DNA of 51,344 nucleotides, from positions 1 to 51,344 of the forward strand of contig JAJYIB010000001.1 in NCBI GenBank assembly GCA_021790275.1, read 5' to 3'. A model generated the notes under the pieces. That model saw only the letters and a program-made list of their open reading frames with translations, ran no database searches and was not told where the DNA came from. Position numbers and translations under genes: made by a program. Numbering within the stretch: the first letter of the stretch is position 1; each line of letters starts with the position of its first letter. Below are positions 2,539-51,344 of the stretch, piece after piece. This DNA is from a bacterium (GTDB taxonomy: Bacteria; Patescibacteriota; Minisyncoccia; UBA10092).

Positions 2539-2669
2539 ATCCACATGTTTTCAACCGTTTCGATTTGCGGCAATCCTTTTTAGGAATTATATTGATTTCA
2601 CAGCCATTATTTTAGTCCCGGGGACAAATCAATTATTTTACTTACGTCCGACAGTTGCTAAATTGTTTT

Positions 2670-2697
2670 AAAATTTAGAATTTAGAATTTAAAATTC
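2670..2697 (+). promoter_or_regulatory. AT-rich tandem TAGAAT promoter-like motif upstream of dnaB
   Basis: AAAATTTAGAATTTAGAATTTAAAATTC lies 9 nt before the dnaB ATG. The same 21-mer recurs upstream of fba at 36026-36056. Confidence 0.4.
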
Positions 2698-2705
2698 ACC
2701 GAGAT

Positions 2706-4079
2706 ATGCCGTCGAAACCGTATTTAAAAAAATCATCGCAAATAGACCCGACCCGACTGCCGCCGCAGGATATCGAAGCCGAACAATCGGTTTTGGGCGC
2801 GCTTCTGATAGACAAAGACGCCATTGTGAAAATCGCCGATGTCATCGCCGCCGGCGATTTTTACCGCAAAGCCCACGAAATCATCTTCGAAGCGGTTGTC
2901 AGTTTGTATTCCAAAAACGAACCCATCGACCTTTTGACCGTTTCCAGCAAACTCAAAGAAAACAAAAAACTCAAAGACATCGGCGGAATGTCTTATCTGA
3001 CGACGCTTATGAATTTCGTGCCGACGGCATCGAACGTTGTCCACTACGCGAAAATCGTCAACCAAAAAAGAGTTTTGCGCGATTTGATAAGCGCATCGGG
3101 AGAAATCGCTTCGCTCGCTTGGGAAGAAAAAAAAGACATCGGTCAGATTCTCGACGAAGCGGAAAAAAAGATTTTCGGCGTTTCCCAGACATCTCTCGTG
3201 CAGGAATTCCAGCACATCAAGCCGCATCTTTCGGAAGCGTTCGAGAGATTCGACCGCCTGCACAAAGGCGACGACACCTGGCGCGGCATTCCGACCGGAT
3301 TTTTGGATTTGGACAAACATCTGGCCGGCTTGCAGAAATCGGATCTGATAATTCTCGCAGCGCGGCCGTCTTTCGGCAAAACGTCGCTCGCGCTGGACAT
3401 CGCAAGACACGCGGCGACGAATGAAAAAATCGCCGTCGGACTTTTCAGTTTGGAAATGTCAAAGCAACAGCTGATAGAGCGGCTAATCGCCGCGGAGGGT
3501 AATATCGATTTGTGGCGACTGCGCACCGGTCAGCTTTCGGATGAAGGAAAGGACAACGATTTTGAAAAAATCGGCCGCGCGCTCGACCGTTTGTCGTCGG
3601 CTCCGATTTATATCGACGACGCCGCCTCGCCGAATGTCTTGCAGATACGCACGATGGCGCGACGCTTGCAAGCCGAAAAAGGCCTCGATCTTTTGATAAT
3701 CGATTATTTGCAGTTGATGCAGGGCAGCGGCCGGATCGAAAACCGCACGCAGGAAGTCAGCGAAATTTCGAGATCGCTTAAAAATCTCGCGCGCGAATTG
3801 AACATTCCGGTCGTCGCCGTTTCCCAGCTGTCGCGCGCGCCCGAAGCCCGCACCGACCAAACGCCGAAATTGTCGGATTTGAGAGAATCCGGCGCCATCG
3901 AGCAGGATGCCGACGTCGTGATGTTCATCTACCGCGAAGACAAAGTCAAAAAAGAAACGGAAAGAAAAAATATCGCGGAAATTCACATCGCCAAGCACCG
4001 CAACGGTCCGACCGGCAAAATCGAATTGTATTTCAACGAGGATTATGTCAGTTTCAGAAATCTCGATAAACTGCATTAA
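2706..4079 (+). CDS. dnaB: replicative DNA helicase DnaB
   Basis: N-terminal PPQDIEAEQSVLG motif, Walker A (ARPSFGKTS) and LFSLEMS. 457 aa. Confidence 0.92.
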   Translation: MPSKPYLKKSSQIDPTRLPPQDIEAEQSVLGALLIDKDAIVKIADVIAAGDFYRKAHEIIFEAVVSLYSKNEPIDLLTVSSKLKENKKLKDIGGMSYLTTLMNFVPTASNVVHYAKIVNQKRVLRDLISASGEIASLAWEEKKDIGQILDEAEKKIFGVSQTSLVQEFQHIKPHLSEAFERFDRLHKGDDTWRGIPTGFLDLDKHLAGLQKSDLIILAARPSFGKTSLALDIARHAATNEKIAVGLFSLEMSKQQLIERLIAAEGNIDLWRLRTGQLSDEGKDNDFEKIGRALDRLSSAPIYIDDAASPNVLQIRTMARRLQAEKGLDLLIIDYLQLMQGSGRIENRTQEVSEISRSLKNLARELNIPVVAVSQLSRAPEARTDQTPKLSDLRESGAIEQDADVVMFIYREDKVKKETERKNIAEIHIAKHRNGPTGKIELYFNEDYVSFRNLDKLH

Positions 4080-4227
4080 GCAATCGAGCAAAATGGAAAT
4101 AAAAATAATCAAAGACGCAATATCGAAAAAGGAATTGAAAAAAATCGCCGAAAATCAATAAATATCGAAAGTTTGCAAATTCAAAGAAAAATCAGAGACA
4201 TAATCAGCAAAATGATTTTATAATTTT

Positions 4228-4560
4228 ATGGAAGCGCAACATAAAAATCTGGCGGCCGGCGGCTGGCAAAAAATGTCTTTTCGCGAACAGATGGGCAATA
4301 TCGGCGGCGAGATAAATCGCGCGCTGTACTGGCGTGGCAAAGACGGAAAATTGCGCGACGATTCGCTTATTCGCGCCTTCGAACTTTTGGATTTGACGAT
4401 CGCCGATTCGAGATGGCGATTGCATTTGAAAGAGTTGACTAGAGTTCGTGAAGTTTTGTCTGACGCAACGCTTGGCGGCGGAGAATATGGTTCGACTTTA
4501 GAAGATTTGGACCGATATTTTTTTCATTTTGCGTTCGCCGCCCGAATTAATCGCCAATAA
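4228..4560 (+). CDS. hypothetical protein
   Basis: 110-aa ORF with host-like composition. I do not recognise a family. Confidence 0.45.
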   Translation: MEAQHKNLAAGGWQKMSFREQMGNIGGEINRALYWRGKDGKLRDDSLIRAFELLDLTIADSRWRLHLKELTRVREVLSDATLGGGEYGSTLEDLDRYFFHFAFAARINRQ

Positions 4561-11218: not shown

Positions 11219-12115
11219 ATGAACCCAGAAAAACTACAACCTACTCCTGAATCAGCCGAAACTTCCCGCGAAGAAGCCACTGCTTTCGAAGCTTTTGGAA
11301 AGCGCGGACAAAGACCCGGGGACCAGGAGAAGAAAGAACCGCAAATTGAATCCGAGCAAGCTATCTCTCTTGCCCGCGAAGTGGAAGAGGCGTTTGCTCG
11401 GAACGATTTTAACGCGGCTTTAGATAAACTTCGCGAACTTCAACGCACGACATCTCCCGAAGGAGTCGTTGAGAGCGAGCACCACGAACAGCTACTTAAA
11501 GAATTCGAACGCCAAGTCGCCACACTTTCAAAACGAGAATACGCAAAGGCGGCCAAAATGAAGCCGGATGAATTTGCAAGGCTTTTCGGACCGCTTAAAG
11601 AACATATCCGCGAAATCGCCCAGCGCGCAAAAGAAACTAAAGAAAAAGAAGGGCATATTCCATTTATTATTGTTATCAAAAACGATGTCATCGGCGGCGA
11701 AAAAGCCATGCCACTCATAGAGCTTGAGGGCAAAAAGGGATATACAGACATGAGCGCGGACGCTATCAAAGGATGTAAACCATATGAAGTAAAGCTTCCC
11801 GAAGGCAAGGCATATCTTGCGATTGATATTGAAACAGGCAAAACCACTCTTGGCAAAACTCCAGATGAAGCAATCAAACAAATCAAAAAAGACAACCGCT
11901 CGGCACTCACTGTGGAAGAAGCGGTTGCTCTCATCACTCATCACCCTGAAATTCTTAAAGATCACTATGTTTGGGCTAGTGGCTCTCGCCACGGCGCCGA
12001 CAAGGTCGCGTATTTGTGGCTCTACGAGGGTGAGCCGAGGCTCCACTGGCTCAGCTCGGACTACTCGGATGCGGAGTGGGGCTCGGCCTCCTGCGGTAGT
12101 AGAGTTGGGCCTTGA
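11219..12115 (+). CDS. DGR variable (target) protein 1
   Basis: 298 aa. The last ~41 codons are VR1. It is a paralog of 13885-14781 and starts 3 nt after the vWA stop. Confidence 0.85.
   Translation: MNPEKLQPTPESAETSREEATAFEAFGKRGQRPGDQEKKEPQIESEQAISLAREVEEAFARNDFNAALDKLRELQRTTSPEGVVESEHHEQLLKEFERQVATLSKREYAKAAKMKPDEFARLFGPLKEHIREIAQRAKETKEKEGHIPFIIVIKNDVIGGEKAMPLIELEGKKGYTDMSADAIKGCKPYEVKLPEGKAYLAIDIETGKTTLGKTPDEAIKQIKKDNRSALTVEEAVALITHHPEILKDHYVWASGSRHGADKVAYLWLYEGEPRLHWLSSDYSDAEWGSASCGSRVGP
11979..12100 (+). repeat. DGR variable region VR1
   Basis: A 122-nt match to the reverse complement of the TR (16517-16638). There are 11 mismatches, all at TR adenines. Confidence 0.9.
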
Positions 12116-12177
12116 TGCTTGGATGCTTGTCCCTCTTGTTTCTTGATATTTGATTTCCGCGAAAATTTTTTTAGAGG
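12101..12177 (+). repeat. 77-nt VR-flanking block, copy 1 (candidate target-recognition/IMH-distal element)
   Basis: 100% identical to 14767-14843. Contains the target stop codon and a tandem GATGCTTG GATGCTTG. Confidence 0.8.
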
Positions 12178-13884: not shown

Positions 13885-14781
13885 ATGAGCGTTGAAAAAC
13901 CACAATTTACTCCTCAAGAATCCGCAGAAGGAGAAGTCAAAACAGAATTTGAAGCGTTTTTTAAAGATAAAAGCAAAAAAGGACAAAAAGAAGAGCCGGA
14001 AGAAGTGAAAGAACGAAAAGCCGAGCTTGAACAAAAAGCCGTGACGCTCGCTCAAGAAGCCGAGCGGGCGTTTTCTTCAAACGACTTAACGCAAGCCCTC
14101 GAAAAACTCCGCGAATTGCAGCGCACCGTCGGAATGGAGATGGTTGAAAACCGCGAACAATATGAAAAATTCGAGCAGGAGTTTAATCGCCAAATAGATA
14201 ATCTCTCCAAGAAAGGATTTCCCAAGCTTGCCGGCATGGATGAGAAAAAATTCGCCGCGATATTCGAACCATTAAAGGAGAAACTTAAGGAACTTTCCTC
14301 GCGGGAGTTTCAAGAAGGCCGAATTCCATTCGTAGTCGTTCCGCGAGACAAACTTCTTGCTTTAGAAAAGCAAATGCCTCTTGTTGAACTTGAAGGTAAA
14401 AAGGGATCTACGGGCTTTGACGATGTATCCGGATACTTCACCACCGCCAAGGGCGTTGAAATCCCGGAAGCGATGGCATATCTCGTAGTAGACATCGAAA
14501 ACGGCAAAGTCATGCTCGGGAAAAGCGCAGATGAGGCGGTAAAACAATTCAAAAAAGAAGGACGTTCTCCGCTTACCGCCGATGAAGGCGTCGCACTAAT
14601 ACTCCAGCACCCGGAAATTCTTAAAGATCATTCGCTGGACTTGCCCGGCTCTCGCCGCGGCGCCGACAGGGTCGCGGGTTTGTGGCTCTACGGGGGTGAG
14701 CCGGGGCTCAGCTGGAGCAGCTCGGACTACTCGGATGCGAGGTGGGGCTCGGCCTCCTGCGGTAGTAGAGTTGGGCCTTGA
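13885..14781 (+). CDS. DGR variable (target) protein 2
   Basis: 298-aa paralog of 11219-12115 with VR2 at its C-terminus. Starts 8 nt after the ATPase stop. Confidence 0.85.
   Translation: MSVEKPQFTPQESAEGEVKTEFEAFFKDKSKKGQKEEPEEVKERKAELEQKAVTLAQEAERAFSSNDLTQALEKLRELQRTVGMEMVENREQYEKFEQEFNRQIDNLSKKGFPKLAGMDEKKFAAIFEPLKEKLKELSSREFQEGRIPFVVVPRDKLLALEKQMPLVELEGKKGSTGFDDVSGYFTTAKGVEIPEAMAYLVVDIENGKVMLGKSADEAVKQFKKEGRSPLTADEGVALILQHPEILKDHSLDLPGSRRGADRVAGLWLYGGEPGLSWSSSDYSDARWGSASCGSRVGP
14647..14766 (+). repeat. DGR variable region VR2
   Basis: A 120-nt match to the reverse complement of the TR. There are 15 mismatches, all at TR adenines (13 A->G, 2 A->T). Confidence 0.9.
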
Positions 14782-14843
14782 TGCTTGGATGCTTGTCCCT
14801 CTTGTTTCTTGATATTTGATTTCCGCGAAAATTTTTTTAGAGG
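14767..14843 (+). repeat. 77-nt VR-flanking block, copy 2
   Basis: Identical to 12101-12177. Confidence 0.8.
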
Positions 14844-16516: not shown

Positions 16517-16638
16517 ACTACCGCAGGAGGCCGAGCCCCACTTCGCATTCGAGTTGTCCGAGTTGTTCCAGTTGAGCTTCGGCTTACCCTCGTTGAGCCA
16601 CAAATTCGCGACCTTGTCGGCGCCGTGGCGAGAGCCAC
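16517..16638 (-). repeat. DGR template region (TR)
   Basis: The minus strand matches VR1 and VR2. It contains 27 adenines, mostly in AAC/AAT/AAG codons (..NLWLNEGKPKLNWNNSDNSNAKWGSASCGSR). It is not part of a long ORF: a TAA lies 3 codons upstream. Confidence 0.9.
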
Positions 16639-44842: not shown

Positions 44843-45121
44843 TTAGTAGCGATTTTCCCGTCTCGGCCTTTCTTCGAGCGGCCGCGCTTCGTTTACCGTA
44901 AGCGCGCGTCCACCAAAATCCTTGCCGTTGAACATTTCGATCGCTTTCTGAGCTTCTTCGTCATTAGACATTTCCACAAAACCGAATCCTTTCGACCGGC
45001 CGGTCATCCTGTCTTTGATGACAACCGCCGAGTCAACGTTTCCGGCTGCGGAAAAAGTGTCTTTCAAGGCATCGTCCGTATTGTCATACGGCAGATTGCC
45101 GACATATAACTTTTTTGCCAT
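44843..45121 (-). CDS. RRM-type RNA-binding protein
   Basis: RNP2 (LYVGNL) and RNP1 (KGFGFVEM) motifs. Confidence 0.88.
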   Translation of the reverse strand: MAKKLYVGNLPYDNTDDALKDTFSAAGNVDSAVVIKDRMTGRSKGFGFVEMSNDEEAQKAIEMFNGKDFGGRALTVNEARPLEERPRRENRY

Positions 45122-45377
45122 TGTTGTTTTAAATTTTTATTAGCGTAAGACGACCTCTCTACTAAGCTTTTGCCTCACGCCAATAAAGCGAAGGAATCGA
45201 CTTATTTGAGAAACTTACTTTGCACAGTATATACCCGCCCGCCGAAAAAGTCAAATCGCCATATCCGGTTTGAAAAATTGCAAAAGCCGGCCGGTTTTGA
45301 TAATCTGATTCCTGTTAATACAGGGAATCTTAAATGTTTTTTGAAAAATTCAAAAAGAAAAAAGAAAGGAGGATAGT

Positions 45378-45944
45378 GTGAAAAGATTGAAAAGGTATGT
45401 GCTTACGGGAATCATTTTTTTCGTCTTTGCCGGTTTGGCGGCTTATGCCGCCTCCGTCGTTTATAATGTAGTAAGACCTTTAAGAATCGTGTCGGAATGG
45501 ATCTTCGGCTATTATATGCCCGGATCGGAAATACTGACGGCGATTTTGCTGATCATCGCCGCCGGAGCGGCGATTCCCGCCATTACCCGTTCCAAACTGC
45601 GCGGCATCGCGGGGTTTAGCCACCTGCATTCCATCAAACAGATGGCGGAGCATCTCCAATCGCAGGGAAAAGACGTGGTGGTGTTGGTGCCCGCCGCTTT
45701 CTGTAAGGGCTATATGATCGGTTTTACTGCGAGAAGCTGTCCGGCGAAGTTCAAAAATTCCGCCGGAAACGAAAATGTGATAATGGTATCTATTCCGCAA
45801 TTTCCTCCATTAAGCTGGACAATCGTTTTGGTTTCGGAAGAAGAAATCATCGAAACCGGAATGACGATTCAGGAAGCGATGGCATCCCTGTTTACTATGG
45901 GAATGATGCCGGAGCTTCCGGCGGCAAAGCCGCCGGCAAAATAA
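45378..45944 (+). CDS. membrane protein, hypothetical
   Basis: GTG start preceded by AAGGAGGA. Two N-terminal TM helices. Confidence 0.45.
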   Translation: MKRLKRYVLTGIIFFVFAGLAAYAASVVYNVVRPLRIVSEWIFGYYMPGSEILTAILLIIAAGAAIPAITRSKLRGIAGFSHLHSIKQMAEHLQSQGKDVVVLVPAAFCKGYMIGFTARSCPAKFKNSAGNENVIMVSIPQFPPLSWTIVLVSEEEIIETGMTIQEAMASLFTMGMMPELPAAKPPAK

Positions 45945-46030
45945 AAACGGCATTTAAATGCTAAAAGCCCCCGTTGACGAACGAGGGCTTTATTTTCTAG
46001 AAAACGGAAAACAAAATTTTTCTTGATCAA

Positions 46031-46357
46031 TCATTTTAAAAGCGGCAAACTGTTTCCCGCCCAAGCAATGGTTCCGCCGGACAAATCGAAAACATCCGGA
46101 AATCCTATGGCGGTCATAAATTCAGCCGCAGCGCGGCTTCTGCTCCCGGTGCGGCAATAAATCGCATAAATTTTATTTTTGCCGAGCCGCCGGATCTCAT
46201 TTTCGAATCCGGCGGAATAAATATCGATATTAACAGCGCCTGCGATATGCCCCACCTCGAATTCTTGCGGCGTTCTGACATCGATAATCGAAAAATCGGG
46301 ATCGCCCCGCCGGCTTTCCATCAATTCTTTTAATTTCACTGAATTTATTTCTAACAT
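46031..46357 (-). CDS. rhodanese-domain sulfurtransferase
   Basis: Active-site loop CRTGSRS. The start was moved to the internal ATG. Confidence 0.8.
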   Translation of the reverse strand: MLEINSVKLKELMESRRGDPDFSIIDVRTPQEFEVGHIAGAVNIDIYSAGFENEIRRLGKNKIYAIYCRTGSRSRAAAEFMTAIGFPDVFDLSGGTIAWAGNSLPLLK

Positions 46358-46410
46358 ATATTTGCGCGACAATAATCCCCGCGTCCTCACATCGCATTAT
46401 AACAAAATAT

Positions 46411-46740
46411 TCAATACGCGAAAAAGAAAACGGCGGTTAAAACAAGGTTGAACAGCATGCAATTATAATTCAGAATATCCGAAAAAAACAAGTATTGATT
46501 CAGTAAAGCCGTCAAAAATACGAGAAAATACATAACGAACAACAGCCGCCGGAAAAATCTCGCTTCGAATTTGGCGGCGGCGAAGATCATAAGAATTGCG
46601 ACAGTCACCCATCCGGCGTGAACAAAAGAATGCCAGTTCACAATAGTCGCGCCGCCAAGAACAATCGATTTCAGCAAATCAAAAGCCGCGACCAGAAAAA
46701 ATAACTTCCCGAAAATTTCCAACCGTTTTTTCATCGCCAT
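46411..46740 (-). CDS. membrane protein, hypothetical
   Basis: 109 aa with 3-4 TM helices. Confidence 0.4.
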   Translation of the reverse strand: MAMKKRLEIFGKLFFLVAAFDLLKSIVLGGATIVNWHSFVHAGWVTVAILMIFAAAKFEARFFRRLLFVMYFLVFLTALLNQYLFFSDILNYNCMLFNLVLTAVFFFAY

Positions 46741-46760
46741 TCCTGAAAATTAATGGTTTC

Positions 46761-47321
46761 TCAATTTTTATCTTTTTTTAAAAGCTCCGGATATTTATCG
46801 ATGATTTTTTCAACCTTCGGTTTTATAATGGATTCGGAGTACGCCTCGTTGGGATGTTTTGCATAAAATTCTTTGTGGTATTCCTCGGCCGGATAAAATG
46901 TTTTAAGCGAAACAAGCTCGGTAATAATCGGTTTTGAATATTTTTTTAAATTGACGATTTTTTTAATATAATTTTCCGCCTCCTCACGCTGTTTGGCAGA
47001 AACGTATAGTATGATTGAACGATATTGAGTGCCAACATCGTTTCCCTGACGATTTATCGCAGTCGGGTCGTGGCTTTCAAAAAACACTTCAAGCAACTTT
47101 TCAAAAGAAACTACTTGCGGGTCATACTCAACTAATATCACCTCGGCATACCCTGTCTTGCCCGATGAAACTTGTTCATATGTCGGATTAATAGTTTCTC
47201 CGCCGGCATAGCCGGGTGTTACGGTAATTACTCCTTTTAATATTAAAAACACCGCCTCGGTGCACCAAAAACAACCTCCGCCAAAAGCAACCGACTCTAT
47301 TATTTTCTTTTGGTTATCCAT
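46761..47321 (-). CDS. msrA: peptide methionine (S)-S-oxide reductase
   Basis: GGGCFWC active site motif. Confidence 0.9.
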   Translation of the reverse strand: MDNQKKIIESVAFGGGCFWCTEAVFLILKGVITVTPGYAGGETINPTYEQVSSGKTGYAEVILVEYDPQVVSFEKLLEVFFESHDPTAINRQGNDVGTQYRSIILYVSAKQREEAENYIKKIVNLKKYSKPIITELVSLKTFYPAEEYHKEFYAKHPNEAYSESIIKPKVEKIIDKYPELLKKDKN

Positions 47322-47330
47322 ATCGAATAT

Positions 47331-47729
47331 TTATTTATCCGGTTTGAATTTTAGTGAAACCGAATTAATGCAATACCTTTTACCCGTCGGCGGCGAGCCG
47401 TCATCAAAAACATGACCCAAATGGGACTCGCATCTGGCGCAAATAACTTCGACGCGATGCATTCCAAAAGAATCATCGAATCTTTCCTCAATATTTTTCG
47501 GATCTATCGGTTCATAATAGCTTGGCCAGCCGGTGCCGGATTCAAACTTTGCTTCCGAACGGAATAACGGCAAATCGCAAGCGGCACAATGATATATCCC
47601 GCCAACTTTTAATTTTTCCACAATACAACTAAAAGCCGGCTCGGTTTCTTTTTGTCTCATAACTCGATACTGTTCCGGCGTCAGAATTTTTTTCCACTCT
47701 TCTTCTGTTTTGCGTATTTTTTCCATCAT
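47331..47729 (-). CDS. msrB: peptide methionine (R)-S-oxide reductase
   Basis: Two CxxC pairs and RYCINS. Confidence 0.9.
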   Translation of the reverse strand: MMEKIRKTEEEWKKILTPEQYRVMRQKETEPAFSCIVEKLKVGGIYHCAACDLPLFRSEAKFESGTGWPSYYEPIDPKNIEERFDDSFGMHRVEVICARCESHLGHVFDDGSPPTGKRYCINSVSLKFKPDK

Positions 47730-47801
47730 TGGCGGGACACTCGGGTTAGGTGCCCCAAATATACAAGAATTATAGGGCTTTTAGGCGATTTTACAAAAAC
47801 T

Positions 47802-48443
47802 CTATTTGAGGCACATTGGTCGGCTAACCATTGTTCGCAAATCTTCAAAATACACAGCTATAATTTCAAGGTTAGGGGAAAACTGTTTTTCCTCGGATAT
47901 AAGTTTTTTTAACAATTGTGCGATTTCTTTTTTCCTATCATCCCACCCTATGCCAAAATCTGAATCCCAAATTAGATAGACTATTCCGTGATTTTTTAAT
48001 TGTTCCTTGGCCTTATCAATTCTTTGTTTGAATTTTTTTCTTATTCTAGACTCATATTCAGTATCTTCTGGTGGACTATTACCAAATGAATTAAGCCTTA
48101 ATGTTTTTATTCGCTCGATTTCATTAGGACTAGCATTGATTGTTTTTATCTCAATTTGGATTCTATTATCAATAAGATCAAATGATTTGTCAGTAGTTTC
48201 ATTTTGAAATAGACCCATTGGATGGAATGCACATGCTACCATAAGTTCATGAATATGATCGTTTATTGAAAGATGGTTTAATTTTTTTGAAAATTTTTCT
48301 TTCAAAATTTTTTTCTGTTTGTCATCTTTAAAAGCAACAAATAAATTTAAATTTTCTAGATATTGTTCAAAATGCCACTTTTTATTACAAAAATAATCGT
48401 CAAGATATTTCTTTAATCCTATGTTAATCAGAGATTGGTACAC
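47802..48443 (-). CDS. hypothetical protein, possible PD-(D/E)xK nuclease
   Basis: FDLIDNRIQIEIKT fits a D...ExK pattern. AT-rich. Confidence 0.3.
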   Translation of the reverse strand: MYQSLINIGLKKYLDDYFCNKKWHFEQYLENLNLFVAFKDDKQKKILKEKFSKKLNHLSINDHIHELMVACAFHPMGLFQNETTDKSFDLIDNRIQIEIKTINASPNEIERIKTLRLNSFGNSPPEDTEYESRIRKKFKQRIDKAKEQLKNHGIVYLIWDSDFGIGWDDRKKEIAQLLKKLISEEKQFSPNLEIIAVYFEDLRTMVSRPMCLK

Positions 48444-48480
48444 GTTAATGTTTTCGATTCATATATGGCGCTCAGTCGTG

Positions 48481-48585
48481 CGGTGTCTGTTTGAAAATAT
48501 CCGAACGGAACTGGCTGGGCTCGGCGGGCGGAATTCCCCTCACACCCCCCTTCCGCCCGTCTCGCCTTGAACCGGAGCGGAAAGG
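48481..48585. repeat. 105-bp inverted repeat, left copy
   Basis: Reverse complement of 49897-50001 with a single mismatch (48540 T versus C). GC-rich, with an internal stem GCGGGCGGAA/TTCCGCCCG. Confidence 0.9.
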
Positions 48586-48610
48586 ACGATTTCAAGTTTT
48601 TCTTTGGCGG

Positions 48611-49549
48611 CTATTCAATATGCCTATTGCTTTTACCAAGATTACACTCTTTACACTTTGTTTCCAAGTTTTCCATTGTAGTTTTCCCTTGTTTGGAAAA
48701 AGGCTGTTTGTGATCTATATGTAATTCTACGCCCGGATTTGTTGCGGGGCTTCTTCCACATCTTACACATCTAAAATTATCTCTGCTTAGAACCTTATAC
48801 CTTAAACTCAAATTAATACTTCGGATTTCTCCGCTCTTGATATTATTATTTATTGTTTTTTCTCTTTTCGCTTCGTTTTTTTCTTGAATAATGGGCTTGT
48901 TTTCAATAACTTTCTCATTACTATCTTCTTGATTCATTTTTTCAACAAAAGCCTCTAACGCCTTTCGCCATGAGCCAAAACGATATTCGTATGTGCCCGG
49001 GCTAATTGTTGAAGGAGCTTTTTCCATTTCGCTGTAAAATGGTTGTCGCCCATGATGCGTCCATACATTAAGGATGTTCTCAAATAATTCGTCCTCTGAA
49101 AATTTTATTCTATATTGAGTTGATTTTTTCAGTCCGGCTTTTTCCAAACCCTTAAGCCAAGTGCCAAAACGATACACAACTGCGGAAGCCGCCATAATTT
49201 CTGAATTATTATTTACATCTTCCTGAGTTATATAATCTCGATTCAATTCTTTTGCTATTCTCTTTAGTTCGTTTAAAATCTCGTCATCTGTGAGATTTTT
49301 TGCTTGCTGACTCCTCATTTTATCTGAAATTTTTACGCCAGAATATTTTTCTCCAATTCCAGCTTTATCTAATACCTGCTGCCAGCCACCAAAACGGCGG
49401 CGAATAGTGCTTGAATGAATCTTGCTATGTAGATCAAAATCCGTAGTTGTCAAAAACTTTTTCCCAACAACTGAAGCAACGCGCCTGATTTCGGCGATTA
49501 TCTCTGCGTCGGAAGAATCTCTTGGTAATGTATTAAGCTCAAATTTCAT
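48611..49549 (-). CDS. HNH endonuclease with three N-terminal homing-endonuclease-associated repeats
   Basis: Repeats RRFGGWQQVLDKAGI, YRFGTWLKGLEKAGL and YRFGSWRKALEAFV. C-terminal HNH (CVRCG...HIDHKQP...N..CKECN). Confidence 0.75.
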   Translation of the reverse strand: MKFELNTLPRDSSDAEIIAEIRRVASVVGKKFLTTTDFDLHSKIHSSTIRRRFGGWQQVLDKAGIGEKYSGVKISDKMRSQQAKNLTDDEILNELKRIAKELNRDYITQEDVNNNSEIMAASAVVYRFGTWLKGLEKAGLKKSTQYRIKFSEDELFENILNVWTHHGRQPFYSEMEKAPSTISPGTYEYRFGSWRKALEAFVEKMNQEDSNEKVIENKPIIQEKNEAKREKTINNNIKSGEIRSINLSLRYKVLSRDNFRCVRCGRSPATNPGVELHIDHKQPFSKQGKTTMENLETKCKECNLGKSNRHIE

Positions 49550-49551
49550 AA

Positions 49552-49758
49552 TTATTTCAATAAATCCTCAACAGAAACGCTGAGCACTTTAGCGATTTTT
49601 GCAACCATTTGAACACCCGGCTTTTTTACAAAATCGCCCTCAATCTTGGCGAGAGTGGAGTATTTGAGCTCGGCTTTCCGTGCCAAGTCGTCTTGGCTCA
49701 ATCCTTGCTTTGTTCTTAACCTTTTTATGTTTTCACCAATAGTTGCCATAGTATCCAA
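49552..49758 (-). CDS. XRE-family helix-turn-helix regulator
   Basis: IKRLRTKQGLSQDDLARKAELKYSTLAKIE. Confidence 0.8.
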   Translation of the reverse strand: MDTMATIGENIKRLRTKQGLSQDDLARKAELKYSTLAKIEGDFVKKPGVQMVAKIAKVLSVSVEDLLK

Positions 49759-49767
49759 TTTTTGATA

Positions 49768-49786
49768 GTATAAAAATATGTTATAC
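49768..49786. promoter_or_regulatory. palindrome GTATAA-N7-TTATAC upstream of the XRE gene (candidate operator)
   Basis: Perfect 6-bp half-sites 10 nt upstream of the XRE start codon. Confidence 0.3.
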
Positions 49787-49896
49787 TTTTATTGTAAGAT
49801 TATGATAACAAATTTTTTGATTTCTAACAAGAAAAGCCTGCTTCTAGCCTTCATAAAGTTCGAGCCGACATTTTTGACAGGTTCTTTGGCAGTTTG

Positions 49897-50001
49897 CCTT
49901 TCCGCTCCGGTTCAAGGCGAGACGGGCGGAAGGGGGGTGTGGGGGGAATTCCGCCCGCCGAGCCCAGCCAGTTCCGTTCGGATATTTTCAAACAGACACC
50001 G
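49897..50001. repeat. 105-bp inverted repeat, right copy
   Basis: See 48481-48585. Ends 118 nt before the recombinase ATG. Confidence 0.9.
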
Positions 50002-50119
50002 TCAGTTAGGAAATGAAGTCATTGGCTCGCCCGCTACGCGGGCTCGCCAGCCGTTTTTCGGGGAAATTTCAAGCCGTTTTGAATTCAGTAGGGCCAGAAG
50101 CGGGCTTTTCTAAAATCCT

Positions 50120-51344
50120 ATGAAATACTTTATCTACACAAGGAAATCTACCGAGAGCGAAGAAAGACAAGTAATGTCTCTTGAATCTCAAATTTCTGAA
50201 TTGAAAGAATTTGCCGCCAAAGAAAAACTTGAAATCGTCGCCTCGCTCAGCGAGGCGCAAACTGCCAAAGAACCTGGACGAAAGATTTTCGCCGAAATGC
50301 TTGATCGGATTTGCGCCGGAGAAGCCGGAGGAATTTTGGCTTGGCATCCCGACAGATTGGCTCGCAACTCCATAGACGGCGGAAAGATTATTTATCTCTT
50401 GGACACAGGAAAAATCCAAGACCTTAAATTTCCCACATTTTGGTTTGATTCGACACCACAGGGGAAATTTATGCTGAACATTGCCTTTGGTCAGAGTAAA
50501 TACTATGTGGACAATTTGAGCGAGAATATCAAGCGAGGCCACCGCCAAAAACTGCGGAAAGGAATATGGCCGGGGTTTGCGCCGCTTGGCTATCTCAACA
50601 ACTCTAAAACAAAGAGCATAGACCTTGATAAGGAAAAATCGGTGTTAGTGAAAAAATGTTTTGAACTCTATGCTACCGGCGACAACACGCTCAAAAATAT
50701 TAAGCAGTTTTTGGCGGATACCGGACTCGACAGCTACAAAGGCAATGTTCTTTCCACTTCCTGTGTCCAGCGAATGTTGAAGAATCCCTTTTACTATGGA
50801 ACTTTCCGCTTCAACGGCGAGCTCTACGAAGGAAGCCACGAGCCAATTATTTCCAAGAAACTTTTTGATGACGTTCAACAAGTGATGAACAATCGGGGCA
50901 AGAAAAAGCGGAAGCGAAAACACGAGTTTGCTTTTTCAGGATTTATGAAATGCGGGAAGTGTGGTTGCCTTATCACCGCCGAAACCCAAAAGGGACATAT
51001 CTATTATCGTTGCACCAAGAAAAAGCAAACCTGTAATGAAAAGTATCTGCGAGAGGAAGCACTTGTTGAACAAATGAAATCCGTCATTCAAAAAGTTTCT
51101 ATTCCCGACGACTGGGCGGATAATATGCTCGCCGAGCTAGACCGCGAGAAAGCGAATATCCAAAACGAGGGCGTTTCTTTTGTTCAAAATCTGAAAAACC
51201 GAAAGGTGGAAGTTGAGCAGAAAATAGATCGGCTTCTTGATATTTACATCGAGGGCAAAGGAATATCGCCTGACGAATATCAGGCCAAGAAAGCGAAACT
51301 ATTGGGCGAGAAAGCCGATATTGAGCAAGAAATCAGAGATTTTG
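50120..51344 (+). CDS. large serine recombinase (partial; continues beyond the window)
   Basis: Not in the ORF track because no stop is reached. N-terminal resolvase motif YTRKSTESEERQ, a recombinase domain, a zinc ribbon (CGKCGC...YYRC) and a coiled-coil tail. Confidence 0.85.
   Translation, partial: MKYFIYTRKSTESEERQVMSLESQISELKEFAAKEKLEIVASLSEAQTAKEPGRKIFAEMLDRICAGEAGGILAWHPDRLARNSIDGGKIIYLLDTGKIQDLKFPTFWFDSTPQGKFMLNIAFGQSKYYVDNLSENIKRGHRQKLRKGIWPGFAPLGYLNNSKTKSIDLDKEKSVLVKKCFELYATGDNTLKNIKQFLADTGLDSYKGNVLSTSCVQRMLKNPFYYGTFRFNGELYEGSHEPIISKKLFDDVQQVMNNRGKKKRKRKHEFAFSGFMKCGKCGCLITAETQKGHIYYRCTKKKQTCNEKYLREEALVEQMKSVIQKVSIPDDWADNMLAELDREKANIQNEGVSFVQNLKNRKVEVEQKIDRLLDIYIEGKGISPDEYQAKKAKLLGEKADIEQEIRDF

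Follow-up and report, generated by a model that had tools for sequence, protein, structure and literature searches.

DNA segments that are flanked by inverted repeats and occur in alternative orientations are known from the yeast 2-micron plasmid, from the G segment of phage Mu (with its invertase, Gin), and from plastid and herpesvirus repeats. In engineered form, MiMIC/phiC31 RMCE places a cassette between inverted attP sites, and the exchange partner needs two inverted attB sites. Candidate-phyla-radiation bacteria (Patescibacteria), the group to which the DNA described here belongs, have tiny genomes and few recognised mobile elements. No description of serine recombinases in Patescibacteria was found in the literature that we searched. 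Serine integrases reportedly do not recombine attP with either attL or attR, and the motif recognised by their zinc-ribbon domain sits 5 bp nearer the centre in attB than in attP (PMC3783163).

The stretch of DNA analysed here (hereafter the window) is 51,344 nt long and carries, close to its end, an inverted repeat beside a serine recombinase gene. A repeat search and direct comparison place the two arms at 48481–48585 and 49897–50001 (105 nt each, with 1311 nt between them); they differ at a single position (48540, T versus C), and complementarity ends abruptly on both sides. These results bear out the description given by a sequence-only reading of the window, and its further descriptive claims were also borne out: (i) the arms are GC-rich in an AT-rich context (63–64% G+C, versus 36% in the interior and 35% in the surroundings), (ii) either arm has its own stem around a C-rich loop (11 bp; GGCGGGCGGAA/TTCCGCCCG(T)C), (iii) the HNH gene, the XRE gene and their promoter region are enclosed (the genes by the domains found, the promoter by consensus match only), and (iv) 118 nt separate the end of the right arm from the recombinase ATG at 50120. 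The whole 105-nt arm folds no better than shuffled sequence (z = -0.17), and the arm was rejected as a structured RNA or DNA on these grounds. No third copy of the repeat was found within the window, and no target-site duplication at the arm ends. Two further features had been overlooked: immediately beyond the right arm the recombinase 3' end is repeated in inverted form over 90 nt, and four short exact inverted copies of parts of the recombinase locus lie directly inside the arms.

We consider it likely that one repeat forms the left end of a ~3.1-kb large serine recombinase (LSR) element in a tRNA-Ser gene and the other a flipped copy of this end inside the element, and that the HNH/XRE genes are swappable cargo. 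According to this explanation, the repeats would be two copies—here called P and P'—of the P arm, the element-side half of the attachment site. The element would span from 48481 to ~224 nt past the window end, would be moved by the adjacent LSR, and would sit in a tRNA-Ser(GGA) gene, at its 3' end. The true left end of the element would be the left copy (chromosome|P, attL-type), and its right end would be d, the final 90 nt of the recombinase gene, set against the tRNA gene (d|tRNA, attR-type). The outer end of P' is joined to d', which copies d in inverted orientation, so that P'.d' would amount to the whole attP (d|P) expected to arise on excision, in inverted form. With this attP copy inside it, the element would fall into two repeat-bracketed segments: the cargo (P to P') and the recombinase (d' to d). 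The predicted empty site reads tRNA-Ser...CCG|CAC GACTGAGCGCC.

The left end of the element, P (48481..48585, plus strand), is placed by the repeat comparison and by two loci from other genomes with unrelated cargo (L006 and L007), in which homology starts at 48479–48481 and stops at d|tRNA. P joins the chromosome by its outer end at 48481 (plus strand), in a putative attL-type junction (...GTCGTG|CGGTGTCTG...), and motif-offset analysis identifies a candidate attP-type half-site motif, TCCGAAC, at a distance of 18 nt from the shared core. Abutting the inner end of P is block a' (48585..48611, plus strand), a 27-nt exact reverse complement of 50213–50239 whose cargo-side end is ragged across relatives. 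The two cargo genes lie on the minus strand: an HNH endonuclease gene (48611..49549; 312 aa; PF18780, 4e-39; PF01844, 6e-11) with three homing-endonuclease-associated repeats (HNH_repeat), and the gene for a small XRE/Cro-type HTH regulator (49552..49758; HTH_3), which is the first gene of the cargo operon. A promoter-like site for this operon, recognised by consensus match only, is found at 49799..49830 on the same strand (TTGTTA, a 17-nt spacer and TATCAT, with an upstream TG), and its -35 hexamer abuts block e'.

Between this promoter-like site and the right arm lie three further blocks, all on the plus strand. Block e' (49830..49849) is an inverted copy, with 1–2 mismatches, of 50092–50111; c' (49852..49877) is a 26-nt inverted copy of nt 1334–1359 of the recombinase gene, the original of which falls beyond the window end (51453–51478, in coordinates extended with locus L002); and b' (49878..49897) is a 20-nt exact inverted copy of 50257–50276 that abuts the inner end of P' (49897..50001, plus strand). 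Outside P' comes d' (49999..50088, plus strand), an inverted copy (90 nt, one mismatch) of the final 90 nt of the element; the original, d, forms the 3' end of the recombinase gene, directly next to tRNA-Ser (51479–51568 in extended coordinates). A hairpin followed by a T run is found inside d', and reverse-complementing P'.d' gives the predicted attP (d|P). The original of e' (e; 50092..50111, plus strand) lies between d' and the recombinase start codon. The LSR gene itself occupies 50120..51344 on the plus strand (the first 408 of 490 codons; the contig ends here) and contains, on the same strand, a (50213..50239), the 17-nt palindrome K (GCCTCGCTcAGCGAGGC; 50240..50256) and b (50257..50276), the originals of a' and b' thus flanking K. 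In the cargo module, P'...P stands in the place that K has in the recombinase gene. A resemblance of the arm's inner end to the K palindrome, seen in the window but not in other clades, was dropped, and a second integrase site at the arm inner ends or at a.K.b was rejected, there being no dyad symmetry and no consistent motif.

The recombinase is a 490-aa protein with Resolvase (PF00239, 8.5e-19), Recombinase (PF07508, 7e-16) and Zn_ribbon_recom (PF13408, 7.6e-10) domains, and has weak but significant sequence matches to chains of the SPbeta and A118 integrase structures; it is not a Hin/Gin-type invertase of ~190 aa with a C-terminal HTH. The window stops short of the element's right end, which was placed from two independent assemblies of the same element, L002 and L001, the latter being a mosaic. 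L002 is 100% identical to the window over 3121 nt. In both assemblies the recombinase frame runs, in antisense, into the tRNA-Ser(GGA) gene and terminates within it, and the two part exactly at ...CCTAACTG|GCGG, continuing into two different tRNA-Ser flanks. Most of 80 relatives have a convergent tRNA gene at most ~100 nt from the recombinase 3' end, often overlapping it. Integration is at the CCA or discriminator end of tRNA genes, and only ~3–6 nt are common to the element junctions.

Measured from the shared core, the motif YCGAAC begins at 13 nt in the tRNA arm and at 18 nt in the P arm, and in 37 of 41 loci the offset between the P arm and the tRNA arm is +5. On this evidence the recombinase recognises the T-loop motif, which lies 5 bp farther from the core on the P-arm side. 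An offset of exactly 5 bp matches the published rule for attB and attP (PMC3783163); judged from sequence, the occurrence of the same T-loop motif in both arms at this offset is the attP/attB signature of a serine integrase. Neither an empty attB site nor an excised-circle junction was found among copies of the flanking genes or among arm-bearing metagenome contigs; for the flanking 213-aa protein and MsrB, identical or homologous copies were found only on the same contig, or on contigs that stop before the junction. The internal P'.d' sequence matches the predicted circle junction, but is not itself one. A conserved second protein that might serve as directionality factor was not found, the cargo varying among loci, and an Rfam search matched no RNA family except tRNA.

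At least 472 relatives are present among species-representative genomes, and 80 of these were fetched for comparison. The architecture is common to ~55 relatives (53–96% aa identity, with many tRNA targets), and is also found on long contigs (L027, 685 kb; L018, 310 kb). A P-type arm is fused to d' in all 47 loci with readable sequence upstream of d', and complete P/P' pairs are present in 29 loci. The positions of the short blocks are constant to the nucleotide, and the blocks abut with spacers of 0–3 nt. The arms are constant while the cargo differs: multicopper oxidase, GDSL lipase, restriction-modification systems, and HD and radical SAM proteins are found across loci, and dozens of loci have the same arms and blocks and no HNH gene. 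A similar small HTH gene occupies the XRE position in about half of the relatives. In a more distant clade, P/P' and d'/d are present, and the short blocks and the K hairpin are absent; the blocks and K therefore fail as a general explanation of the repeats. The block-bearing clade has kept K, with compensatory changes. Among viral contigs there were only seven distant relatives, none of them informative.

The same P arm occurs on >120 metagenome contigs. On 28 of these it lies beside a left flank other than d, and the majority of such flanks have TGG, which is CCA on the tRNA strand, as their last bases. The sequence-only reading had also offered a dispersed structured repeat, and had envisaged further copies of the 105-mer unrelated to recombinases; neither idea is supported by this survey: all copies examined are in the recombinase element or its decayed remnants, with two exceptions that resemble chance hits in unrelated, G+C-rich DNA. 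The layout recurs in hundreds of candidate-phyla-radiation bacterial sequences, and no description of it was found in the literature searched.

Recombination between the ~100-bp repeats, most likely homologous, would flip either segment of the element. Both flips are seen among relatives: the repeat-bracketed cargo segment is reversed in L014, and the recombinase segment in L043. Among the 27 complete loci in which blocks were mapped, 26 nonetheless have the orientation of the window (1/27 flipped), none of the 32 metagenome arms with readable context is flipped, and L001 and L002 each show one orientation only. Another candidate flipped form, L103, was rejected as the normal form on the opposite strand. 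On flipping of the cargo, the gene-derived short blocks would become direct repeats, leading to deletion; the window orientation may predominate because flipped cargo is lost in this way. The predicted deletion products exist, as headless recombinase genes (L025, L009 and L031) and as scars (e.g., L132, which reads P.b.c.d), and flipped forms appear to decay by deletion. Other derivatives include a tandem array (L011) and a locus, L112, with a P'/P fusion between b' and a' and a palindromic P-derived element between cargo units. None of the histories considered for the mosaic—simple insertion, nested insertion or template switching—gives the block order without extra steps.

The circular form of the element would hold two inverted attP copies. 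Serine integrases having been reported not to recombine attP with attL or attR (PMC3783163), the recombinase may not itself flip the segments.

A plus-strand promoter-like site within the cargo segment is directed at the recombinase gene, and a leader frame starts inside the cargo segment and runs in the same direction. In 24 of 40 loci there is an open frame of at least 90 codons that ends 0–19 nt before the recombinase ATG (~1 expected by chance); in the remaining 16/40 the frame is closed. In the common orientation, the cargo-borne promoter and the long leader frame would thus point through P'.d' into the recombinase gene, and cargo orientation probably gates recombinase expression. The leader-frame peptides show no conservation beyond that imposed by the DNA repeats, and the frame was for this reason rejected as a conserved protein, such as a directionality factor. 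Any role of the internal attP copy is putative. A far-reaching proposal, which we regard as conceivable but rather doubtful, is that the internal attP copy, the short blocks a', e', c' and b', and the covarying hairpin K make up a device of a new kind, in which (i) orientation would couple the cargo promoter and leader to the recombinase, (ii) the blocks would program homology-guided cargo exchange, recombinase self-inactivation and clean scar deletion, and (iii) the extra attP would act in cis, replacing a directionality factor.

Long, near-perfect inverted repeats adjoining a serine recombinase could alternatively mark a phase-variable switch, in which the recombinase often inverts 48586–49896 and so toggles HNH/XRE, or the recombinase, in the manner of Hin/Gin. 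Such an inversion would disconnect the plus-strand promoter-like site and the start of the leader frame from the recombinase gene, and an inverted cargo segment does occur in L014. We nevertheless judge a switch unlikely: orientation is near-uniform across the complete mapped loci and the readable metagenome arms, the two other assemblies of this very element agree with each other, deletion appears to erode flipped forms, and the 490-aa enzyme is of an integrase type whose family does not recombine attL with attP. The earlier suggestion of a recombinase-invertible segment thus stands in so far as both segments are found flipped among relatives, and is weakened in that orientation is nearly fixed; as a phase switch of HNH/XRE in particular, the repeats do not qualify, being a constant part of an element whose cargo varies. 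That the HNH protein has homing-endonuclease-associated repeats, and that the arms bracket exactly the HNH+XRE cassette, could instead point to an independent mobile or homing unit (HNH+XRE), nested beside the recombinase gene and with the arms as its terminal inverted repeats; the recombinase-gene fragments beside the cassette could even suggest homing into that gene. This account, also raised by the sequence-only reading, is highly improbable. Dozens of loci have the same arms and blocks around unrelated, non-HNH cargo, the fragments are permuted (a'...b', not b'...a') in a manner that simple insertion cannot yield, and the outer ends of the arms are, on the evidence of their motifs, LSR half-sites. 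Neither a free-standing repeat unit nor target duplications, as expected of a transposon or MITE, were found.

Every block is complementary to a segment of the recombinase mRNA, with spacers of 0–3 nt, and a leader or small RNA (e'c'b'.P'.d') might pair with that mRNA at e, b, c and d, controlling its translation or stability. The upstream plus-strand promoter-like site, the terminator-like hairpin in d', the compensatory changes in the K hairpin of the gene and the often open leader frame are consistent with an RNA role, which we still hold to be very unlikely. The mismatches between blocks are wobble-compatible in six cases on one strand and seven on the other, and in 14 on neither; given this lack of G:U bias, RNA pairing was rejected as the cause of block identity, which is about equal to the identity of P and P'. 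The pairings would, moreover, be pseudoknotted, no plus-strand transcript is predicted at a', and no Rfam family matched. As for an assembly artefact—a chimera formed at the repeats in a mixed population—the contig does stop within the recombinase gene, in a region that varies between strains, L001 has a mosaic sequence, and short Logan contigs break at the repeat. Against this, the architecture is present in ~55 independent assemblies from many studies and assemblers, including the 685-kb and 310-kb contigs, and the blocks are shorter than assembly k-mers, leaving an artefact with a negligible probability.

An LSR element with swappable cargo, the reading that we prefer, would belong to a family that uses tRNA genes as entry sites for restriction-modification systems, nucleases and metabolic genes, and that may be a main route of gene flow in candidate-phyla-radiation bacteria. 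An integrated element with its own full inverted attP, and with both cargo and recombinase bracketed by duplicated ends, would be unlike the textbook life cycle of a serine integrase, and raises the question of what governs direction and expression where no directionality factor is known. The readable target code at tRNA 3' ends (T-loop motif plus acceptor end) is also of interest for genome engineering.

The element has the same domain set as known serine-integrase modules (A118/LI integrase, phiC31, SPbeta SprA, Tn4451 TnpX and SCCmec CcrAB), and resembles them in its site-specific insertion, its hybrid junctions, and a motif placed 5 bp further out in the element arm. It differs from them in that (i) no conserved candidate directionality factor was found, (ii) the target is the extreme 3' end of a tRNA gene, inside which the recombinase frame is completed, (iii) a full inverted attP (~195 bp) is kept just upstream of the recombinase gene, and (iv) cargo and recombinase each lie within ~100-bp inverted repeats. 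Like systems of isomerising DNA, the family has two flippable segments and both flips are seen among relatives; here, however, one orientation dominates, the repeats copy the element ends, and the enzyme is of integrase type rather than an invertase or Flp. MiMIC/phiC31 RMCE likewise has a cassette between inverted serine-integrase attP arms, although no partner with two attB sites was found here. Tycheposons and other small, tRNA-targeting cargo elements are similarly small, with variable cargo, clade-specific tRNA genes, tandem arrays and degenerate remnants beside tRNA genes, but they use tyrosine recombinases and direct partial-tRNA repeats, and no internal inverted attachment site has been described for them. 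Finally, integrons also carry variable cargo of a single gene or a few genes at a fixed place beside the recombinase gene, a likeness that extends to the palindromic P-derived element between cargo units of L112; they differ in having the tyrosine recombinase IntI with attI and attC sites, whereas the family described here has only a serine recombinase, cargo with its own promoter, and a platform that is itself mobile.

A repeat search and direct comparison re-found the inverted repeat exactly as the sequence-only reading had described it: positions 48481-48585 and 49897-50001 are mutual reverse complements with a sole mismatch (48540) and 1311 nt in between. The two arms, P (left) and P' (right, inverted), have a G+C content of 63-64% in a setting of 35-36%; their complementarity breaks off sharply at either end, and each contains an 11-bp stem round a C-rich loop. 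The whole arm folds no better than shuffled sequence. The interval between the arms comprises a promoter-like site and two genes, one for an HNH endonuclease that bears three homing-endonuclease-associated repeats, the other for a small regulator of XRE type. The gene that follows, beginning at 50120, codes for a large serine recombinase whose domains are Resolvase, Recombinase and zinc ribbon. No further copy of the repeat turned up elsewhere in the window. An unrelated repeat family (about 120-197 nt, 88-94% identity) occurs at 11979-12177, 14647-14843 and 16517-16638, as one inverted copy and two direct copies, the latter lying at the 3' ends of two 298-aa ORFs.

Absent from the sequence-only reading are further, short inverted copies of recombinase-locus segments that abut the arms. 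Blocks a' (48585-48611) and b' (49878-49897) match 50213-50239 and 50257-50276, respectively, as exact reverse complements; c' (49852-49877) corresponds to gene nt 1334-1359 and e' (49830-49849) to 50092-50111. Immediately outside the right arm, d' (49999-50088) is an inverted copy of d, the final 90 nt of the recombinase gene. Given these positions, 49830-50088 is a gapless mosaic, e'.c'.b'.P'.d'. Within the gene, a 17-nt palindrome, K (50240-50256), lies between a and b; in the cargo module, P'...P occupies K's place between them.

The window is an entire contig and ends inside the recombinase gene. Its HNH protein is also encoded, unchanged, in two further assemblies, L001 and L002. Of these, L002 matches the window at 100% identity across 3121 nt. 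L001 is identical from 45082 to 51051, then diverges by about 10% until the d region, where identity is regained before a different tRNA-Ser. The window's contig end falls within this polymorphic stretch (51052-51344), which could reflect strain mosaicism or chimeric assembly. In both L001 and L002 the 490-codon recombinase frame terminates within a tRNA-Ser(GGA) gene, which it reads in antisense. They part exactly at ...CCTAACTG/GCGG, past which they differ in tRNA-Ser sequence and neighbour genes. On the left, similarity to loci in two other genomes (L006 and L007) begins at 48479-48481, the outer end of P, and the intervening cargo is unrelated. Together, the start of homology at P and the divergence point at the d/tRNA junction indicate a mobile unit running from P to d (~3.1 kb), with HNH and XRE as its cargo.

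Within d', positions 50024-50063 (+) hold a G+C-rich hairpin followed by GTTTTT, which was not flagged by a terminator scan. This hairpin confronts transcripts arriving from the cargo side; that of the d copy at the tRNA end would be the terminator of the tRNA-Ser transcript. In two related loci (L103 and L133), the chromosomal flank left of P ends ...TTATT(T)CCTAACTGG, similar to the last 13 nt of the element's own d end, as if insertion had occurred beside what was left of an earlier element.

A scan of species-representative genomes revealed at least 472 relatives. Eighty were fetched (53-96% aa identity, mostly Patescibacteria MAGs), and their layouts were read by comparing each locus with itself. 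In most, a convergent tRNA gene lies no more than about 100 nt from the 3' end of the recombinase gene, and in many the two overlap; the target is tRNA-Ser in close relatives and Gln, Leu, Trp, Val, Tyr, Arg or Asn in others. The common layout consists of (i) a P/P' pair of about 90-200 nt (409 nt in one exception, L085) enclosing 0.8-5.6 kb of cargo, and (ii) a d'/d pair of 80-130 nt, with d' joined to P'. Cargo is highly varied (multicopper oxidase, GDSL lipase, Dcm plus NgoPII, other methylases, a type IIG enzyme, HD and radical SAM proteins), and the position of XRE in the window is occupied by a small HTH gene in about half of the loci.

Half-sites were compared across loci between the d/tRNA junction and the reverse complement of P'.d', that is, d/P. 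Both share a short core (TGGCGG, TGGCTG or TGGTGC), beyond which a T-loop motif, YCGAAC, starts 13 nt out in the tRNA arm and 18 nt out in the P arm. In 37 of 41 loci the two starts differ by exactly 5 nt, the exceptions being mostly mis-hits of the search pattern. In serine-integrase sites, the zinc-ribbon-domain motif lies 5 bp nearer the centre in attB than in attP (PMC3783163). Most left flanks end in TGG, or CCA on the tRNA strand, which fits a crossover at the discriminator/CCA end. Taken with the offset, these flanks identify P as an attP-type arm and the tRNA as an attB-type arm; the chromosome/P junction is then attL-type, the d/tRNA junction attR-type, and P'.d' a full, inverted copy of the predicted attP.

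Every member of the family has P/P' and d'/d. Short blocks and K are restricted to the nearer clade, where e', c' and b' lie at constant positions from the inner end of P' (-67 to -49, -48 to -21 and -20 to -1) and correspond to constant gene positions. The synonymous changes of each locus are mirrored in its own block copies. Blocks and long arms are about equally similar (27 mismatches in 2137 nt versus roughly 65 in 3448 nt), and no G:U bias was found among block mismatches; both observations argue for homogenisation at the DNA level, rather than selection on RNA pairing. K, whose codons read Ala-Ser-x-x-Glu-Ala, pairs at 97.7% over 37 distinct sequences, a level reached by none of 500 shuffles, with compensatory changes at three pairs, synonymous wobble positions among them. 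In four relatives (L037, L010, L063 and L067), a' is doubled around the first cargo gene or interrupted by a 40-60 nt insert; in L037, counted from the recombinase start, the two a' blocks lie at -4237 and -3893. Such doubled or split blocks hint that cargo is gained at the a' position.

In 24 of 40 loci, where about one is expected, a plus-strand open frame of at least 90 codons runs through P'.d' towards the recombinase start, ending 0-19 nt ahead of the ATG. That of the window (49778-50113, +, 111 codons) begins at a promoter-like site within the cargo segment, crosses e'c'b'.P'.d'.e and ends 6 nt ahead of the recombinase ATG. The encoded peptides are not conserved among relatives. Possibly, the frame is a translated leader tying recombinase expression to cargo orientation.

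Two relatives carry flipped forms. In L014 the cargo segment is reversed (P.b.c.e.cargo.a.P'.d'), while in L043 the recombinase segment is, with the tRNA upstream and d/P.b.c downstream. L043 is also a hybrid of a Trp-clade recombinase and a Ser-type d.P: at 2564-4360, the recombinase lies downstream of tRNA-Trp and is followed by the Ser-type d.P module, then by b.c blocks matching its own gene. This arrangement looks like an exchange of the attachment module at block boundaries. A cargo flip would turn the inverted blocks into direct repeats and so permit deletion. Products expected from such deletion do occur among relatives: recombinase genes lacking their first 28 codons with cargo in front (L025 in full, also L009 and L031), a scar with the order P.b.c.d in L132, and smaller remnants in L119 and L136. 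The compact L136 remnant, on the minus strand at roughly 150-350 of the reverse complement, adjoins an intact tRNA-Ser. It comprises 14 nt of d' together with most of P, the internal loop of which is inverted; next comes a' fused to the outer end of P'. Such an order suggests flip-flop of the stem-loop within the arm. Another relative, L011, is a tandem array. In L112, an 87-nt palindrome within positions 1-200, made from the inner halves of P' and P joined at the internal stem-loop and flanked by b' and a', joins two cargo units as a cassette separator would.

Since flipped forms and predicted deletion products both occur in relatives, the repeats are recombinogenic, and the proposal of an invertible segment holds to that extent. 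As a frequent switch it fares less well: flipped forms are rare, the window's orientation being shared by 26 of 27 complete loci with mapped blocks, and none of 32 metagenome arms with readable context being flipped. In the predominant orientation, deletion between the blocks is not possible. Serine integrases reportedly do not pair attP with attL or attR (PMC3783163), so flipping more likely proceeds through homologous recombination of the ~100-bp repeats.

The other two proposals found no support. Terminal repeats of a nested unit are at odds with arms that read as integrase half-sites and, in L006 and L007, enclose unrelated cargo. As for a dispersed repeat, a 20-mer taken from the arm's inner end in the window does occur in more than 120 metagenome contigs; among the matches listed, all but two run on into a' or b, or near variants, and 28 arms adjoin a left flank other than the element's d end. 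The two exceptions seem to be chance matches in unrelated G+C-rich DNA. The repeats are best read as part of a serine-recombinase cargo element, widespread among candidate-phyla-radiation bacteria, which contains, in inverted form, a copy of its own attachment site. No description of such an element was found in the searchable literature. The 5-nt offset between the P and tRNA arms of this family is the published attP/attB signature of serine integrases (PMC3783163).
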